A stretch of 25,173 nucleotides of DNA, taken from the IMG/VR virus record IMGVR_UViG_2703718872_000032; one strand, given 5' to 3'. The stretch comes from a virus. Lineage: Duplodnaviria; Heunggongvirae; Uroviricota; Caudoviricetes. The translations under genes were made by a program, and so were the position numbers. Each line of letters opens with the position of its first letter. Within the stretch, counting starts at the first letter, position 1. Under the pieces are notes generated by a model. The model worked only from the letters and a program-made list of their open reading frames with translations, was not told where the DNA came from and ran no database searches. Positions 9,795-16,436 of the stretch are shown piece by piece.

Positions 9795-9887
9795 TGTTAG
9801 GTATTTTAGACGTTACTAGATTAAAAAGCATTAGTTCAGGAGTGAATTGACATTCTCATTTTTCATGGCACAGGGTAGATCTGGCGT

Positions 9888-9917
9888 GGTTGTCCGCTTT
9901 GTGCCAGGAGCGGACGT
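9888..9917 (+). repeat. att-like site A: GGTTGTC + inverted repeat GTCCGC/GCGGAC + conserved 18-mer TGTGCCAGGAGCGGACGT
   Basis: 18-mer at 9900..9917 is identical to 12452..12469. Same GGTTGTC prefix as sites B and D. Confidence 0.5.
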
Positions 9918-10007
9918 TGCTAATGGCATGATGTATGAACCAATGGAGAACCGATCATCTATACACATATAGATCCCTAACGAAAATATTGTTTTCACTA
10001 GCCCTGT

Positions 10008-10044
10008 AATGGAAGCGTTAATTTTATATTCTAACGCTTCCATT
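10008..10044. repeat. Perfect 13-bp palindrome with 11-nt loop (aatggaagcgtta ... taacgcttccatt)
   Basis: Read directly. Lies 3' of the SDR gene but is not followed by a T-tract on either strand. Confidence 0.5.
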
Positions 10045-10096
10045 GAGCCTACCACTTTGGCAAAGCAATTCTTACACTTCAAAATAATGTGCTTTT

Positions 10097-10843
10097 TTAT
10101 TCAGCTAAATAACCGCCATCGATTGGATAAACGCCTCCGGTACAGAATGTAGAACTGTCTGACAGCAAGAACAATATGAAGTCTGCTATTTCCTGCATTT
10201 TTGCCATCCTTTTCATAGGGTGGCTATTTGCGAAACTACTTACAATATTTTCAGGGAACTCACTCATTCTTTGGGTTTGGACATAGCCCGGAGCGACTGC
10301 ATTGATTCGAATGCCTTGACATGCAAACTCTAGCGCTGCGGTTTGGGTTAAACCGATTATACCATGTTTAGCCACGGTGTAAGGTGCTAATCCAGGAATG
10401 CCAACCAGACCATTTACTGCAGATAAATTAACTATAGATCCACCAAACTTCATCATCTGGGGTATTTCATATTTTAGGCAGTGAAAAACGCCGCTCAATG
10501 AGGTAGCAATAACCTTATCCCAGTTTTCAACTGTCTGCTCTGTTATATTTTTACCATGTTCACCTGTTAAGCCTGCATTATTTACAGCATAATCAAGTCT
10601 GCCGAAATGTTTGATAACCTCATCTATCATTTGCCGTACTTGTTCGGGCTGTGACACATCACATCCGATCCCCATGGCTTGTTGTCCCTGTGAAGATAAT
10701 TGTTCCGCTTTTTGTTTAGCCTGTTCTGACGAGCGGGATACAATAACAACTTTTGCACCATGCTTATGTAATTGCTCTGCGACGGCCTCACCTATACCTG
10801 TAGTGCTTCCTGTTATAACGGCAATTTTATTCTGGAAATTCAT
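10097..10843 (-). CDS. Short-chain dehydrogenase/reductase (SDR) family oxidoreductase (248 aa)
   Basis: TGxxxGIG cofactor motif (ITGSTTGIGEA), NNAG, and catalytic YxxxK (YTVAKHG). ATG at 10843 preceded by AGGGGG. Confidence 0.85.
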   Translation of the reverse strand: MNFQNKIAVITGSTTGIGEAVAEQLHKHGAKVVIVSRSSEQAKQKAEQLSSQGQQAMGIGCDVSQPEQVRQMIDEVIKHFGRLDYAVNNAGLTGEHGKNITEQTVENWDKVIATSLSGVFHCLKYEIPQMMKFGGSIVNLSAVNGLVGIPGLAPYTVAKHGIIGLTQTAALEFACQGIRINAVAPGYVQTQRMSEFPENIVSSFANSHPMKRMAKMQEIADFILFLLSDSSTFCTGGVYPIDGGYLAE

Positions 10844-10914
10844 AACCACCCCCTATGAAGTAGAATTGAGTCTTTCATCTGGGATAGTATACAAACCATC
10901 TGTGACAGTTTTTG

Positions 10915-11604
10915 TCAGTACTCTTTCCCCTCGCAGATCCCTTCTTTTATTCTCCATTTTTTCAATAAAATTGTCCTGCTTTCACTATAGTTGGAGTCAA
11001 GTTGCACAATATCTTCAATTTTGTCAGTTCTAAAATGACGAAAATCATTTCTCATCTCGCACCATGCAACCAAAAGCCAGCACGATTCCATGTATACCAA
11101 TCCGATGGGCCATATGACTCGTGAAGTGTAAGAATCTTTTTTATCACAATAATTTATTTTGATTTTCTTTCTTTTTTTTATAGCATTGCGAATGTCTTCA
11201 AAAAAAATCTCATTGTTTTCTGATGGACCGATCAGATAGGATTGACTCTCAATAAGATTTTTCAATTCACTGGGAATGACGGCGTGTATTTTCGCAAGCG
11301 CATTCTTTGCGGTAATTTTGAAATTATAATCTGTATTGTGCGATACCCAATTTAACCCAAGTGTAATAGCATTAATTTCTTCATGAGAAAGATTTAAGGG
11401 GGGCAAATGAAAGTCAGATTTAACAATATAACCAATTCCAGCACCACCTTCAATGCATACTCCTTGATGCTGCAGCGTTTTTATATCTCTGTAAAGGGAG
11501 CGTACACTTATTCCCAATCTTTCTGAGAGGATGGATGCTGTGATCGGATATCTTTGTGCCCTTAATATTTGTAGTAACTCGAGAAGTCTTTCTGTTCTAG
11601 TCAT
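10915..11604 (-). CDS. HTH + WYL-domain transcriptional regulator (YafY-like), 229 aa
   Basis: N-terminal HTH (MTRTERLLELLQILRAQRYPITASILSERLGISVRSLYRDIKTL) followed by a WYL-like central region. Same strand as the SDR gene, immediately upstream of it. Confidence 0.75.
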   Translation of the reverse strand: MTRTERLLELLQILRAQRYPITASILSERLGISVRSLYRDIKTLQHQGVCIEGGAGIGYIVKSDFHLPPLNLSHEEINAITLGLNWVSHNTDYNFKITAKNALAKIHAVIPSELKNLIESQSYLIGPSENNEIFFEDIRNAIKKRKKIKINYCDKKDSYTSRVIWPIGLVYMESCWLLVAWCEMRNDFRHFRTDKIEDIVQLDSNYSESRTILLKKWRIKEGICEGKEY

Positions 11605-11822
11605 GTTGATAAATCCATTTTGAGGCGATTTCTTAAAGCATCTGTTAGATAAACATATTAGTACAAAGCAAGTGTACATGGCTAAGCTGAACTGCTACCG
11701 ATGATTAATACAGCGCTATGTTCGTAATGCGTACATAAGCGGTGATCATGAGTGTAAACATCCGCTTTTCGCTTATAAGGGACAACCATACTCAAATTTC
11801 CCACATTGCAGGAGATTTGAGT

Positions 11823-12425
11823 ATGAATACGTCACCGTGGAACAAAGACCGTATCATCGGCCAAAAAAGACCACTTCAGATATCTCATATCTGGGGGATC
11901 CGAATCCGGCTTGAACTGGAAGGTAAAACGCGCGATTTAGCTCTGTTCAATATGGCCCTGGACAGTAAGCTTCGAGGCTGTGATCTGGTCAAACTCAAAG
12001 TATCGGATGTGGCATATGGTAGTTCGGTTTCAAGCAGAGCAACGGTGTTGCAACAGAAAACCGGTAGCCCTGTGCAATTCGAGATAACCAAAGGGACAAG
12101 AGAAGCTGTTGCTGCATTGATAAAGCTTGGCAATTTGCACAGTAAAGACTTCTTGTTTCGGTCTCGGGTCGGAACTAACCAGCACATTTCAACCCGGCAA
12201 TACAACCGAATCTTTCATGGGTGGATAGAAAAACTTGGTCTCGAAGGTTCACTTTACAGCACACATTCAATGAGAAGAACAAAACCTTACCTGATCTACA
12301 AGAAAACCAAGAATCTCCGGGTGATCCAACTTCTGTTGGGTCATAAGAAACTGGAAAGCACAGTCCGTTATCTGGGCATTGAAGTCGATGATGCGTTAGA
12401 GATCTCTGAATCGATTGAAGTCTAA
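11823..12425 (+). CDS. Small tyrosine site-specific recombinase, FimB/FimE-like (catalytic domain only, 200 aa)
   Basis: ATG at 11823 preceded by AGGAGA. Alignable by eye to FimE: RDLALFNMALDSKLRGCDL vs ARDYCLILLAYRHGMRISEL; STHSMRRT vs THPHMLRH; LLLGHKKLESTVRYL vs DYLGHRNIRHTVRYT (conserved R, H-x-x-R, H, Y). Confidence 0.8.
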   Translation: MNTSPWNKDRIIGQKRPLQISHIWGIRIRLELEGKTRDLALFNMALDSKLRGCDLVKLKVSDVAYGSSVSSRATVLQQKTGSPVQFEITKGTREAVAALIKLGNLHSKDFLFRSRVGTNQHISTRQYNRIFHGWIEKLGLEGSLYSTHSMRRTKPYLIYKKTKNLRVIQLLLGHKKLESTVRYLGIEVDDALEISESIEV

Positions 12426-12469
12426 GGTTGTCAGGGCTGCAACAGCAGCCCTGTGCCAGGAGCGGACGT
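12426..12469 (+). repeat. att-like site B: GGTTGTC + perfect hairpin GGGCTGC-AACA-GCAGCCC + 18-mer TGTGCCAGGAGCGGACGT
   Basis: Starts right after the recombinase stop codon. 18-mer identical to site A; whole site is near-duplicated (degenerate) at 13971..14014. Confidence 0.55.
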
Positions 12470-12576
12470 CTAGTTCGCTGAACCACAAAAAGTCGTTTCT
12501 AGTTATATTACTGGCTCATTAGTATCTTTATGCGATAATATTTCATACAACCAAAATTATGATGAAGGGAGTTCAA

Positions 12577-13698
12577 ATGGCAATTACGGTCTATTCTCGT
12601 ACATTCAAAAAGGAATTGGACATGGTTCAATTGTTAAACCATTACTCATCAGATAACGCACTCAATTTCAGTGATTTCAAGGAATTTGTTGCCTTTGATG
12701 CAGAGTGCCCAATTTGCAATGTAAGCGGTGCGATTGTTGTTTCAGAAGGTTATTCGAAAAGAACAAATAAGATAGTCAGCCAATCTCATTTTGCGTTTAG
12801 AACAAAAGACGGAACTGATGCACACAAAGTATTTTGCGATCATTACAGTGGTGATGATAAGCAAATAGATTCATCAAGGGATGGTTTTATAAAATTCGGC
12901 ACCTCAGGTTCTGAGATTACAAGTATAATTCGCGAGCTTGTATGTAGAGGTATTGAACATGATGAGTTCAATCAGGAAGATATTCGAAACATGCGGCAAT
13001 GGTTTACAGAATTACGCCAGTCAGGCACTTTTTCTGTTAACTATAGCCCTCACATGATCAATCTAATAAGGGCCAGCATGTATTCCCGTAAGGGAGAAAG
13101 TAAATATATTGTAGATGAAGAGAGGAAAAATAAATCTTGGTTTGATATAAACGATGAAGTGTATCGTTCGTTAAGATTCAAATATCCATCATTGATGATC
13201 GACATGACTAATGAAAATAATTCTGTTTTCTATAATCTTGTGAATAGTACCACATTTACTAAACAAGCACATCGATTAGTAGCACGAGATCGAGGTTATC
13301 AGGTTTATGATAGAAGGTTGCTTAAAGAAAAATATGAAGCAACGATAAGAGTTGCACAAAAAATAACCAGGCATCACGAATTTCTTTTTAGGAAAATCAG
13401 GGGTATATCCGCTGTTAAAAAAAACAACCCCCTTTTGGCTGTATCTGCCTTGCTTCTTTTTGTCTCGGACTGGAATGAAACAACTGCAATCAACAAATTC
13501 ATCAAATTGTGTGGTGTAGGGAAATCTAAAAATAATGATGAGGGGAATGTAATTGGCTTAAATCCCTTTATTCATTACGATGTCTGGAATGTTATTCATC
13601 AACTTAAGGATTTAATGGTTACACTTCCAGACTTCTCAAATCTTGATGAAGAATTTGACAGAGAAAAATCCAGATTAATTGAACTTTACAAGCTCTAA
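12577..13698 (+). CDS. Hypothetical protein (373 aa), AT-rich cargo gene of unknown function
   Basis: Long ORF with AAGGGAG RBS 5 nt before the ATG at 12577. Visibly lower GC than the flanking phage genes. Contains CPICN and CDH motifs. No family recognised. Confidence 0.65.
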   Translation: MAITVYSRTFKKELDMVQLLNHYSSDNALNFSDFKEFVAFDAECPICNVSGAIVVSEGYSKRTNKIVSQSHFAFRTKDGTDAHKVFCDHYSGDDKQIDSSRDGFIKFGTSGSEITSIIRELVCRGIEHDEFNQEDIRNMRQWFTELRQSGTFSVNYSPHMINLIRASMYSRKGESKYIVDEERKNKSWFDINDEVYRSLRFKYPSLMIDMTNENNSVFYNLVNSTTFTKQAHRLVARDRGYQVYDRRLLKEKYEATIRVAQKITRHHEFLFRKIRGISAVKKNNPLLAVSALLLFVSDWNETTAINKFIKLCGVGKSKNNDEGNVIGLNPFIHYDVWNVIHQLKDLMVTLPDFSNLDEEFDREKSRLIELYKL

Positions 13699-13740
13699 CA
13701 TAAACTAGCAGGCTGCGTATACAGTCTGCTAATTTTCATA

Positions 13741-13970
13741 GTAAAGACTTCATGCTTCAGTCTCGAGTTGGAGCTATCCGTCACACATCACCCAGGCAAT
13801 TCAACCGAAATTTTTCATGGGGGGTAGAGAAGTTTTGTCTCGAAGATTTGCTTTACAGCATACTAATCATTGAACCTCTGTTGAACCATAAGAAACTGGC
13901 AAGCACAATCCGTTGCTTGGGCATTGAATTCGACGATGCGTCGTATAGCTCTGACTTGAACAAAACATAA
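13741..13970 (+). pseudogene. Degenerate duplicate of the recombinase 3' end (about 230 bp, with internal deletion)
   Basis: DNA from agtaaagacttc onward parallels 12141..12425. Translation FNRNFSWGVEKFCLEDLLYS...LNHKKLASTIRCLGIEFDDA parallels YNRIFHGWIEKLGLEGSLYS...LGHKKLESTVRYLGIEVDDA but lacks the catalytic H-x-x-R block. Confidence 0.65.
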
Positions 13971-14014
13971 GGTTTTTAGGGCTGCAACAGCACCTCTGTG
14001 TCATAGGCGGAAGT
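13971..14014 (+). repeat. att-like site C (degenerate copy of site B)
   Basis: ggtttttagggctgcaacagcacctctgtgtcataggcggaagt versus site B ggttgtcagggctgcaacagcagccctgtgccaggagcggacgt. Confidence 0.45.
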
Positions 14015-14311
14015 TAACAAACATTAAAATCTCTAAATCTGTAGGGATCAGACTCCTTCTATAAAAGGATACTGTTCATATCCTTAGTTGTATATAGGTG
14101 TGTTTAGAGTATTAGGATGCTAGTTTTGAAAATTAATTTTTTAAACATATTGAATTTTTTAAGAATTGGGAATAGTGTATAGCTTTGTCATGGCGGATTT
14201 TTTCTCTTCAAGTATTTATTTGAACACTACTTCTTGCACCTGCAAGGTTACAATATCGTGTAAATTTGTTCACAAAGACATAGATTATAATTTTTACTTA
14301 AAGGAAATTCA

Positions 14312-15565
14312 ATGTCAAAAAATCTCCCGGTTTTATTAAGCTCGCCATCAACAACTAATTTTCCTGCAACAGTTAATACTGAAATAGAATTCCTTTCGCA
14401 AGCTAGAAAGTTGTTAGATTCTGGCTTCCCTGATCATGCTCTTTTAGATATATGGAATGCATCCATTCATAATCTTAGGCGGCGAATTGAGGCTTATGGT
14501 TTAGACTTATTCCTTTCCGCAATAAAGGATGATAGTGGTCGTAAAAAATATGATAAAGATGGTGAAACAATAAACGAGAGATGGTCAGGTGTAGATGATT
14601 TAGTGCTAATAAGTGGAGCCACCAAATTAGGGGTTCTGCATAAGAAAGCTGGAAAATCATTAGAAATGATCAATTGGATGAGAAACCATGCCTCTCCAGC
14701 CCATGCAAGTGATAGTAAAGTAGAGTCTGAGGATGTGTTTGCTTTGGCTCTTATGCTCCAGAAGAATTTATTCGAATCTGATATGCCAGACCCTGGACAT
14801 TCGCCATCTGGATTATTTGAACCCATAAAAAAATCTGAACTATCAATTGAGAGCATAGACTTACTTAAAGATCAAATAAGAGCATTTAAGCAAGCTGATA
14901 TAAGAATAACATTTGGATTTTTATTGGATTTAATAACTAAGGGGGAAAATCCTGCTTATGTTAATGCTAGCAAGTTGTTTGAACAAGCATGGGAAAGATC
15001 TAATGATGACCTTAAAAAAACAGCGGGGGAAAGATATCACTCATTTATGCTGGAGCCCGAATCGGATACAAGTGAGGATAAAGGAGCAAAAATAAGAATT
15101 TTAGAGACTTTAGTAAAAGTTAATGGTGTGAAATTTATACCTGATGCTGCTAGGGCAAGTTTATACAGACATGCGGTTAAACAGCTAGCTAAAGCTAAGG
15201 ATACATCTTACGGCTGGAATGATGAAGAAAGAGCAGCCAAGGCACTTATACAATTTGGACCTCATGTTCCATCTATTGCTTTTGAAGATGTATATCAAGA
15301 AATACTTACTGTTTGGGTGGGGAATTACTGGGGAAGATCTGATGCACATTTAGTACTTCAACCATTTTTAGATGTGTTAAATAGTAATCAATTGATGGCT
15401 CTCTCACGGTTGTTCGTGGAGAATGAAAGAGCAAATTCAGAACTGGTGTCATCAAGGCCCAAAAGAAGAGCAATAGAATTACTTGAGATAATAAAAAATA
15501 ATCTAACAATTCAAGCAAGCATTGATGAAATTGATAGGATTATTTCTGAAATTGATAAAATGTAA
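14312..15565 (+). CDS. Hypothetical protein (417 aa), AT-rich cargo gene of unknown function
   Basis: Long ORF with AAGGAAA RBS and an AT-rich upstream promoter region. Intrinsic terminator directly downstream. No family recognised. Confidence 0.7.
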   Translation: MSKNLPVLLSSPSTTNFPATVNTEIEFLSQARKLLDSGFPDHALLDIWNASIHNLRRRIEAYGLDLFLSAIKDDSGRKKYDKDGETINERWSGVDDLVLISGATKLGVLHKKAGKSLEMINWMRNHASPAHASDSKVESEDVFALALMLQKNLFESDMPDPGHSPSGLFEPIKKSELSIESIDLLKDQIRAFKQADIRITFGFLLDLITKGENPAYVNASKLFEQAWERSNDDLKKTAGERYHSFMLEPESDTSEDKGAKIRILETLVKVNGVKFIPDAARASLYRHAVKQLAKAKDTSYGWNDEERAAKALIQFGPHVPSIAFEDVYQEILTVWVGNYWGRSDAHLVLQPFLDVLNSNQLMALSRLFVENERANSELVSSRPKRRAIELLEIIKNNLTIQASIDEIDRIISEIDKM

Positions 15566-15577
15566 TTTATTTGCAAT

Positions 15578-15610
15578 TAAGCCATGCTTTTTAGGTGGCT
15601 TATTTTTTTT
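15578..15610 (+). terminator. Rho-independent terminator after the 417-aa gene
   Basis: Stem taagcca/tggctta with 11-nt loop, followed by an 8-T run. Confidence 0.6.
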
Positions 15611-15682
15611 GAATCTACTACTTATATTGATATTAGCAATGTAATTGCTAAAGTATTCCTAGCCCACTATTCATCTAAATAT

Positions 15683-15741
15683 GGTTGTCGAAAGGCCCGC
15701 TTCTCGCTCAAAGCGGACTAGAAGGTTAGCTTGTGTCGGAC
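15683..15741 (+). repeat. Possible degenerate att-like site(s) D
   Basis: ggttgtc + inverted repeat ccgctt/aagcgg + agcggac (15683..15718), then aaggtt...tgtgtcggac (15722..15741). These resemble the outer motifs of sites A and B but without the intact 18-mer. Confidence 0.25.
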
Positions 15742-16183
15742 TTTGCGTATTAAATGACTAGTGGTTGAGCCCCATTTCCACAGAAAAAATCAGAGAAACT
15801 ATACCCAATAGTTGTATTGAATCACTGACGAGACAGCCTCATATTCATCAGGACTGGTGTACGTCCAATACAGGAGGTTGTGGTGCTGGTTCTCAAATGT
15901 GCGCTGGCTATTACGGCTGTAATGGCGATTTATTGTCTTGCTATTGTTCTTATGGATCGCCTTTCTGACTGATTTCACATTGGCGAGGTAACGGTAGTTA
16001 AGTAGAATGGCTGCGGGTGCTTGAGGCTATCTGCCTCGGGCATGAACACCAACGGCAGATAGAGAAAAGCCCCAGTTAACATTACGCGTCCTGCAAGACG
16101 CTTAACATTAATCTGAGGCCAATTTCATGCTAGACATATGTAGGTTAGCCTCTTACGTGCCGAAAGGCAAGGAGAAGCAGGCT

Positions 16184-16339
16184 ATGAAGCAGCAAAAGGC
16201 GATGTTAATCGCCCTGATCGTCATCTGTTTAACCGTCATAGTGACGGCACTGGTAACGAGGAAAGACCTCTGCGAGGTACGAATCCGAACCGGCCAGACG
16301 GAGGTCGCTGTCTTCACAGCTTACGAACCTGAGGAGTAA
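16184..16339 (+). CDS. hokD: Hok/Gef-family type I toxin (51 aa)
   Basis: MKQQKAMLIALIVICLTVIVTALVTRKDLCEVRIRTGQTEVAVFTAYEPEE matches HokD (RelF) as I recall it. An in-frame upstream ATG at 16127 gives the 70-aa track ORF. Confidence 0.8.
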   Translation: MKQQKAMLIALIVICLTVIVTALVTRKDLCEVRIRTGQTEVAVFTAYEPEE

Positions 16340-16409
16340 GAGACCCGGCGAGGGAGAAATCCCTCGCCACCTCTGATGTGGCAGGCATCCTCAACGCACC
16401 CGCACTTAA

Positions 16410-16436
16410 CCCGCTTCGGCGGGTTTTTGTTTTTAT
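16410..16436 (+). terminator. Rho-independent terminator downstream of hok
   Basis: cccgc-ttcg-gcggg hairpin followed by tttttgtttttatttt. Confidence 0.65.

Follow-up and report, generated by a model that had tools for sequence, protein, structure and literature searches.

The 25,173-nt stretch of DNA analysed here (the window; IMG/VR record IMGVR_UViG_2703718872_000032) is an E. coli Qin/Kim-type lambdoid cryptic prophage, 100% identical to NZ_CP027586, which carries on its plus strand (14312-15565) a gene for a protein of 417 amino acids (aa), raising the question of what this protein does and how its gene came to lie in the prophage. A first interpretation of the letters alone (the sequence-only reading) had described an AT-rich, self-contained cargo gene of unknown function and had guessed at a role in abortive infection (Abi) or exclusion. 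From the results set out below, the gene appears most likely to encode a single-protein, Abi-type anti-phage ribonuclease (RNase) of the HEPN kind, with a solenoid domain that would sense infection or target the substrate. The gene and the predicted domains of its product are:

14312..15565, plus strand: coding sequence of the 417-aa HEPN-solenoid protein (WP_000042049.1; PHROG 27609)
14363..14782, plus strand: predicted N-terminal HEPN domain (aa ~18-157)
14681..14704, plus strand: predicted RNase active-site motif R124-N-H-A-S-P-A-H131 (Rx6H), placed by its invariance in alignments and its position in the model
14810..15562, plus strand: predicted C-terminal alpha-solenoid (HEAT/ARM/TOG-like), aa 167-417

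The open reading frame (ORF) stands as claimed, beginning with an ATG preceded at a distance of 6 nt by a Shine-Dalgarno sequence (AAAGGAAA, 14300-14307), and full-length homologs in many phyla, sharing 48-100% identity and nearly all 412-420 aa long, mark it as a real gene. Its product has no Pfam match even at E <= 10, no NCBIfam match and no PADLOC v2.0.0 family at E <= 0.1, the sole match in a curated library being PHROG 27609 (E 7e-186), a family without an assigned function, and the literature searched by accession number and PHROG identifier held no mention of it. The family has 435 matches in a set of 5.8 billion proteins and, in 1.84 billion representatives, forms 420 clusters at 50% identity; it falls into two length classes, one of ~417 aa and one of ~470-495 aa with an N-terminal extension.

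Sequence searches of the PDB with full-length and N-domain profiles gave nothing meaningful. An AlphaFold2 model, for which 44 homologs were used, is all-helical and of high confidence (pLDDT 88.6); a disordered linker (161-166) lies between its two domains. Foldseek comparison of the full model with the PDB returned generic solenoids only (E >= 0.02). The N-terminal domain is predicted to have an all-alpha four-helix core, the HEPN fold, in which helix 111-126 ends in R124-N125, H131 lies in a loop, helix 139-154 comes next and residues 64-110 form an insert. In HEPN families generally, the Rx4-6H motif occupies a helix end plus the following loop, the Arg is usually followed by N, D or H, the spacer is of six residues in some families and the segment inserted between helices 2 and 3 varies (PMC3710099), and the predicted model agrees with each of these points on motif placement, spacer and insert. 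A second acidic residue in helix 2 (Ex3[KR]) is conserved across many HEPN families; here E60 is invariant in the 417-aa subfamily but not superfamily-wide, D41 is 79% conserved and there is no clear Ex3[KR].

The sequence-only reading had seen no recognisable catalytic motif, a statement overturned by the invariant RNx5H signature (HEPN Rx4-6H) at aa 124-131 (nt 14681-14704). In the alignment of the 417-aa subfamily (A1), R124-N125-x5-H131 falls within the invariant block LEMINWMRNHASPAH; in the N-domain alignment (A2), W48, R124, N125 and H131 are the sole invariant residues down to 19% identity; and in alignment A3 the motif is at least 90% conserved, its R, N and H being retained in ~85% of 81 family representatives. 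When 105 diverse members were compared with Pfam, the signal was faint but consistent: the most frequent sub-threshold matches were to DUF4145 (nine members), Abi_C (four) and HepT-like (two), all of the HEPN clan, with every other family matched by at most three members, and in two relatives checked individually the DUF4145 and Abi_C matches cover the motif. The HEPN fold and motif are assigned with high confidence, much more firmly than any phenotype. Two matches that contain the N-domain bear the precomputed Pfam tag PF27235, which lies outside the Pfam copy used; perhaps this domain has lately been given a Pfam family. Proteins that seemed to be stand-alone N-domains proved at least partly to be split or fragmentary genes, the B. 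ubonensis case being a full-length homolog, and were therefore not used as evidence.

The most conserved positions of the superfamily lie in the C-terminal domain, namely N218 (95%), W227 (99%), E305 (99%), P320 (96%), N338 (96%) and G341 (99%). Other architectures for this domain were sought with a C-domain profile, which recovered only this family, and the N- and C-domains are therefore a fixed pair. The solenoid could act as a sensing or targeting module, its very high conservation suggesting a conserved ligand.

Relation to BxaP and other HEPN proteins

BxaP, a single-gene Akkermansia protein, protects ~1000-fold against T4 in an Abi-like manner and combines an N-terminal DUF4145/HEPN domain with a weak C-terminal HEAT-like match (PMC10799925). 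It was discovered via its structural similarity to PD-T7-3 (TM 0.656) and is found inserted in type 3 BREX and type I restriction-modification (R-M) loci (PMC10799925). Remote-homology and structure searches identified the N-domain of the 417-aa protein as a predicted HEPN domain homologous to the DUF4145 domain of BxaP and the C-domain as HEAT-like. With hhalign, the N-domain profile (A2) aligned with BxaP residues 20-142 over 122 columns (probability 94.2%, E 1.1e-7), the family's MRN..SAAHP falling on MRCLY--GHP of BxaP, Arg on Arg and His on His. The BxaP mutation P121A, which reduces defence, lies six residues past the aligned His by our own count on the BxaP sequence.

The 417-aa protein appears to share the BxaP architecture, with a homologous effector domain. 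Both are single-gene systems of ~400-440 aa with homologous N-terminal DUF4145/HEPN domains and with C-terminal HEAT-like helical domains that are alike by fold only, and both are rare, patchy and horizontally spread, BxaP occurring in or near type I R-M loci and in phage genomes and the 417-aa family near type I R-M genes in some lineages. The two differ in motif spacing, Rx4H in BxaP against Rx6H in the 417-aa family, and in the near-invariant C-domain residues that the 417-aa family has as its own, and BxaP has been tested experimentally whereas the 417-aa family is known from sequence.

PD-T7-3 is a single-protein defence system from an E. coli pangenome screen in which 6 of the 21 systems show remote HEPN similarity (Vassallo et al., 2022). 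Through BxaP's structural similarity to it, PD-T7-3 probably shares the HEPN-plus-helical architecture, and it is likewise an E. coli accessory gene; the comparison was by model only, the PADLOC PD-T7-3 model having no match to the 417-aa protein at E <= 0.1.

The classical HEPN Abi proteins and anticodon nucleases (AbiD/F, AbiJ, AbiU2, AbiV, Abi_C, RnlA/LsoA, PrrC/RloC and HepT) have in common with the 417-aa protein the HEPN fold with Rx4-6H, carriage on mobile elements and a predicted action as a metal-independent RNase halting translation on infection, and one member of the present family shares an operon with PrrC. They differ in that the 417-aa protein has no above-threshold match to their Pfam, PADLOC or NCBIfam models. 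It also lacks the ATPase that PrrC has and an antitoxin partner such as RnlAB and HepT-MntA possess, and its solenoid C-domain is distinct. In RNase L and Ire1 a repeat or sensor domain controls the dimerisation-dependent activation of a HEPN RNase, and the likeness is one of activation logic only, no homology being claimed beyond the HEPN fold; both belong to eukaryotes and carry ankyrin repeats or a lumenal sensor together with a pseudokinase. The KEN domain of this comparison is classified within HEPN (PMC3710099). The kind of protein is already known from BxaP, PD-T7-3 and the HEPN Abi proteins, while the family itself is uncatalogued in Pfam, NCBIfam and PADLOC v2.

The 417-aa gene occurs in 13 of 5,426 complete E. 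coli genomes and on four IMG/VR contigs, and a family gene is carried by 31 of 185,579 species-representative genomes, in 29 of them at an identity of at least 48%. The carriers span Gammaproteobacteria, Campylobacterales, Betaproteobacteria, Syntrophales, Bacteroidota, Acidobacteriota, Chloroflexota, Spirochaetes, Firmicutes, Lentisphaerota and three lineages of the Candidate Phyla Radiation (CPR). In 8 of the 11 loci compared the gene is poorer in GC than its flanks, by 0.05-0.15 in the four GC-rich hosts (in Cyanobium, 0.53 against 0.68). The neighbours vary by lineage, and comparison of the loci gave no conserved partner of the family gene, whether another gene, a small ORF or a structured RNA.

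Most copies lie in prophages, integrative and conjugative elements (ICEs) or islands. In E. coli Qin, Photobacterium and Pseudomonas the gene is a prophage moron between replication and lysis/packaging genes, and in a Cyanobium prophage it stands between the portal and terminase genes. Type I R-M genes adjoin it in three lineages. In Lentisphaerota (CP151801) hsdR, the last gene of the series hsdM-hsdS-prrC-hsdR (PrrC E 2.8e-138), is followed after 44 nt by the homolog in the same operon, an arrangement that would bring two different HEPN-type effectors together in one type I R-M locus, and in Lachnobacterium and Lujinxingia type I R-M genes lie directly upstream of the homologs. No BREX association was seen in the family loci examined. 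The Burkholderia homolog adjoins helicase+DUF2290 and IetA, and the Providencia homolog borders an integrative island, found at no fewer than four insertion sites, beside a NucC/PD-(D/E)xK-like gene. This Providencia neighbour, annotated 'DUF6602' (locus L002, 9560-10276, minus strand), matches PADLOC PD_DExK (E 1e-29) and the NucC nuclease (E 4e-16), and is a lone NucC-like nuclease at the island edge.

The cassette, the associated recombinase and the hotspot

The features at and around the borders of the gene are:

11823..12425, plus strand: 200-aa tyrosine recombinase (catalytic domain only) of the cassette array (Pfam Phage_integrase, E 1e-17)
13752..13970, plus strand: decayed C-terminal remnant of a second small tyrosine recombinase copy (BLASTP; DNA repeats D1, D2)
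13971..14014, plus strand: left cassette border, degenerate site GGTTTTT...TGTGTCATAGGCGGAAGTT at the end of the decayed recombinase copy (repeat families D2, D4)
14015..14311, plus strand: AT-rich 5' leader or regulatory region of the cassette, containing AAAGGAAA
15578..15611, plus strand: intrinsic terminator (hairpin plus U-run), from its fold and its conservation in Providencia
15683..15718, plus strand: right cassette border, full site motif GGTTGTCGAAAGGCCCGCTTCTCGCTCAAAGCGGAC, where the Providencia (~15714) and ICE (15719) homologies end
9888-9915, 11760-11787 (minus strand), 12426-12467, 13971-14014 (degenerate) and 15683-15718: copies of the site

The sequence-only reading had spoken of a cassette, an idea borne out by homology blocks that end on repeated site motifs and by its place in a hotspot marked by a recombinase, where other strains have defence genes. 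Homology between E. coli and Providencia is limited to ~14010 to ~15714, while the block shared by the Qin prophage and an ICE corresponds to window 12452-15719 at 99.8% identity, and the end points of homology all fall on copies of one site, GGTTGTC-N(5-30)-TGTGCCA-NN-AGCGGAC (GGTTGTC...TGTGCCAGGAGCGGAC). In most other E. coli carriers the gene lies at the end of the ICE, together with the gene for a 379-aa protein that precedes it in the window (trbL...betT-DUF2254-[379]-[417]-vbhA-int-tRNA-Ser). On the IncY plasmid pEco-CTX-M-15 the betT-DUF2254 flank extends up to TGTGCCA and is followed by a 476-aa distant homolog and a 200-aa recombinase. In Serratia montpellierensis (NZ_VOSN01000013.1) a 100%-identical protein is accompanied by the 379-aa gene and, downstream, a 99.5%-identical recombinase, indicating very recent intergeneric transfer of the cassette block. 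With cassette blocks common to the Qin prophage, the ICE, the IncY plasmid, Serratia and Providencia and with break points on the sites, the 417-aa gene appears to travel as a 1.7-kb cassette of leader, ORF and terminator bounded by recombinase sites. No description of such a recombinase-site cassette system was found in the literature searched. One genome sharing only window 14000-14104 proved to be an IS1 deletion remnant, uninformative on the cassette boundary.

The composition of this unit and its terminator were much as first described. GC content is 0.36 in the coding sequence against 0.42 in the 5-kb flanks, with 500-nt windows of 0.32-0.37. Downstream of the gene a hairpin (15578-15602) is followed by A+U8 (centroid -9.9, minimum free energy -12.2 kcal/mol, z = -1.8). 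The consensus scan did not call a terminator at 15578-15611; the hairpin is kept in Providencia in surroundings just 73% identical, and the terminator was therefore accepted. A terminator-like hairpin at 13706-13731, 3' of the upstream 379-aa gene, supports a separate transcription unit for the 417-aa gene.

The promoter-like region that had been placed at 14030..14310 was not supported, there being no sigma-70-like site of at least 9/12 on the plus strand there, and in the wider region such sites occur at chance level (13 found against 12.5 expected from shuffles). A TATAAT at ~14286-14291 has a poor -35 and lies in a segment deleted in one Providencia variant. The leader (14015-14311) is conserved (65-73%) solely with the closely related Providencia cassette and holds a conserved inverted repeat, CCTTCT..AAGGATACTGTTCAT.

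The recombinase is 95% identical to the one on pEco-CTX-M-15 and occurs in 872 of the 5,426 complete E. coli genomes (16%), at several loci and also on plasmids. A decayed second copy, the remnant at 13752-13970, has an internal deletion, matches aa 138-218 of the recombinase at 43% identity (BLASTP) and lies between the 379-aa cassette and the 417-aa cassette. In other E. coli the recombinase has as neighbours PD-T7-1 (in the same Qin slot, strain F070), PD-T7-5 and HEC-08/DUF3644, of which PD-T7-1 is an experimentally validated system (Vassallo et al., 2022). Kinship of the 417-aa protein with these hotspot proteins was considered and set aside, hhalign giving no reliable relation to PD-T7-1 or PD-T7-5 and a probability of 5% for HEC-08/DUF3644, too weak to be used.

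The arrangement resembles integron defence cassettes, a concept taken from a preprint, in having a single-gene unit running from promoter to terminator, short and partly palindromic sites, a tyrosine recombinase, exchange between replicons and defence genes as neighbouring cassettes. It differs in that the sites are not attC-like in sequence, each cassette has its own leader, and recombinase genes or remnants are interspersed. An integron as such was rejected: the IntI models gave E 0.017-0.036 and 13-14 bits against cut-offs of 265-435, and the recombinase has just 200 aa.

Function of the 417-aa protein and rival explanations

In the favoured explanation the 417-aa protein would be a stand-alone two-domain immune effector of the BxaP/PD-T7-3 type with R124, N125 and H131 as catalytic residues. 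Its own cassette would supply a low, constitutive level of the protein in an inactive state. The trigger could be infection itself, or an alteration, brought about by phage or stress, of a conserved cellular partner on the N218/W227/E305/N338/G341 surface, upon which two HEPN domains would pair to form a composite metal-independent RNase site. Activation by dimerisation is proposed because it is established for HEPN enzymes (PMC3710099 and general knowledge). The composite site would cleave cellular and/or phage RNA (tRNA, rRNA or mRNA), leading to a stop in translation and an aborted infection, with the lysogen or ICE host and its clonal neighbours protected. The guess at abortive infection or exclusion is thereby kept in part: it gains from the HEPN fold and motif, the N-domain homology to BxaP, the mobility of the gene as a single unit, the defence-rich contexts and the recombinase hotspot. 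The analysis shows the ORF, the fold, the motif with its position, the N-domain homology, the mobility and the contexts; cleavage of RNA, its activation by dimer formation, the trigger and protection against phage are inferred.

Several observations weigh against this explanation. No curated HEPN-clan model is matched above threshold by the protein, and the C-domain profile (A4) shows no sequence similarity to BxaP (hhalign probability 0.4%, E 0.14), the 417-aa protein therefore not being a BxaP ortholog. Searching the deposited phage genomes with tblastn gave no match, the contexts in Steroidobacter and C. botulinum show no mobile element or defence genes, and conservation of at least 48% across phyla would be unusually high for a defence gene. 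In 13 of the 81 representatives (~15%) the HEPN Arg/His are missing and N218, W227, E305, P320, N338 and G341 are all kept. Such a loss would mean that RNase activity is not essential to every member and suggests a solenoid function independent of it; the solenoid may indeed carry the core function.

This last point is taken further in a joint proposal, tentative and on balance rather unlikely as a whole, that the solenoid and not the nuclease is the conserved module, binding a universal machine (ribosome, tRNA or translation factor) as a translation-surveillance immune sensor with an undescribed trigger logic, and that the gene is at the same time a cassette of an undescribed integron-like system in which the 200-aa recombinase shuffles single-gene defence cassettes among Enterobacterales prophages, ICEs and plasmids. 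The solenoid surface formed by N218/W227/E305/N338/G341 is conserved, at identities of 48% or above, from E. coli to CPR bacteria. Least expected among the findings are that conservation is dominated by the solenoid and that the gene belongs to a cassette system with a recombinase.

The protein could instead be an addiction or stabilisation toxin, a HEPN RNase held by a cis antitoxin (leader RNA or autoinhibition by the solenoid) and keeping the ICE, prophage or plasmid by post-segregational killing, which is judged improbable. The gene does lie at ICE and island ends near toxin-antitoxin (TA) modules, namely vbhA/Fic-like, hokD/sok and, on the IncY plasmid, relB, and the equivalent slot of K-12 Qin is occupied by relBE. 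In keeping with this, HEPN toxins are common in TA systems (PMC3710099) and the BxaP-like candidate ORF5348 is toxic without phage (PMC10799925). Against it, no conserved adjacent antitoxin gene (e.g. MNT) was found in any lineage examined, and a hidden antitoxin in the leader was sought and rejected: its RNA fold is not significant (z = -0.54), it has no Rfam match and no conserved small ORF, the small ORFs being broken by indels in Providencia, and the flanks are not conserved past Providencia. The roles in TA and in defence are not mutually exclusive.

No better placed is a non-catalytic scaffold or regulator, in which the solenoid would bind a conserved partner, cellular or encoded by the element, and the HEPN-like domain would only provide helices for binding or dimerisation, like the HEPN domains of sacsin or those associated with nucleotidyltransferases; the protein would then alter host physiology (lysogenic conversion) and not cleave RNA. 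The invariance of R124, N125 and H131 in the 417-aa subfamily and their ~85% retention in the superfamily form a pattern like that of a catalytic site, and these residues are essential in HEPN RNases by published mutagenesis (PMC3710099). That inactivated members are common in HEPN families (PMC3710099) likewise counts against a scaffold. Counter-defence or competition between elements, with a phage- or ICE-encoded RNase acting on host defence RNAs or transcripts of rival elements, has very little probability, for carriage by prophages, ICEs and the four IMG/VR contigs and an anti-Pycsar-like gene near the homolog in the Photobacterium prophage are set against homologs that lie within type I R-M operons of chromosomes or share an island with further defence genes, a closest characterised relative (by N-domain and architecture) that is the host defence protein BxaP, and absence from deposited phage genomes (tblastn).

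If the single-protein anti-phage RNase is the right explanation, a compact single-gene HEPN effector family, missed by Pfam, NCBIfam and PADLOC v2, would be added to the anti-phage repertoire, horizontally spread over more than 10 phyla including CPR bacteria and with unusually strong sequence conservation. This conservation suggests the readout of a universal cellular feature and not of a phage-specific one, in which case the protein would be a convenient model for the off-state of HEPN RNases and their switching on. The cassette context could also provide a route to discovery, the recombinase marking exchangeable slots that hold PD-T7-1, PD-T7-5, HEC-08 and several uncharacterised genes including the 379-aa neighbour.

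The surrounding prophage and neighbouring genes

The prophage has int, exo, dicB, dicA/dicC, ydaT-like, DUF977, hokD, rem, ydfU, Q antiterminator, lysis and nohA/terminase genes, and the 417-aa gene belongs to an AT-rich insert of ~5.8 kb (GC 0.32-0.46) between the DUF977 gene and hokD. The order within the insert is the SDR and HTH-WYL genes (minus strand), the small tyrosine recombinase, the 379-aa gene, the recombinase remnant and the 417-aa gene. The neighbouring features are:

10097-10849 and 10915-11679, both minus strand: SDR-family oxidoreductase and HTH-WYL regulator genes
12559-13698, plus strand: 379-aa gene (PHROG 12525, no function assigned; annotated as 373 aa from an internal start)
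16015-16189, plus strand: sok antitoxin RNA of the hokD/sok type I toxin-antitoxin system (Rfam RF01794, 112.7 bits, E 9e-26)

The sequence-only reading had placed the 417-aa gene in the same context as the 373-aa gene, here extended to 379 aa. The two genes occur together in E. coli and Serratia only, and the 379-aa neighbour was rejected as an obligate or conserved partner, being absent from all non-enterobacterial loci and showing no profile similarity to the 417-aa protein. Its product has no Pfam, NCBIfam or PADLOC match, and the gene is another candidate defence gene.

Across the recombinase from the cassettes lie the SDR and HTH-WYL genes as a divergent pair; in strain F070 PD-T7-1 takes this position. 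The HTH-WYL regulator matches the PADLOC model 'WYL, CRISPR-associated signalling' (E 3.8e-61), and WYL regulators often control defence genes. The DUF977-hokD slot (9795-16000) holds in other E. coli a 195-aa hypothetical gene or QueH (epoxyqueuosine reductase), and in K-12 relBE/flxA; it is a variable moron hotspot of Qin-like prophages. The sok RNA lies immediately to the right of the cassette array, and beyond it a sub-threshold isrK-like match (16348-16429) overlaps a strong terminator (16408-16425).

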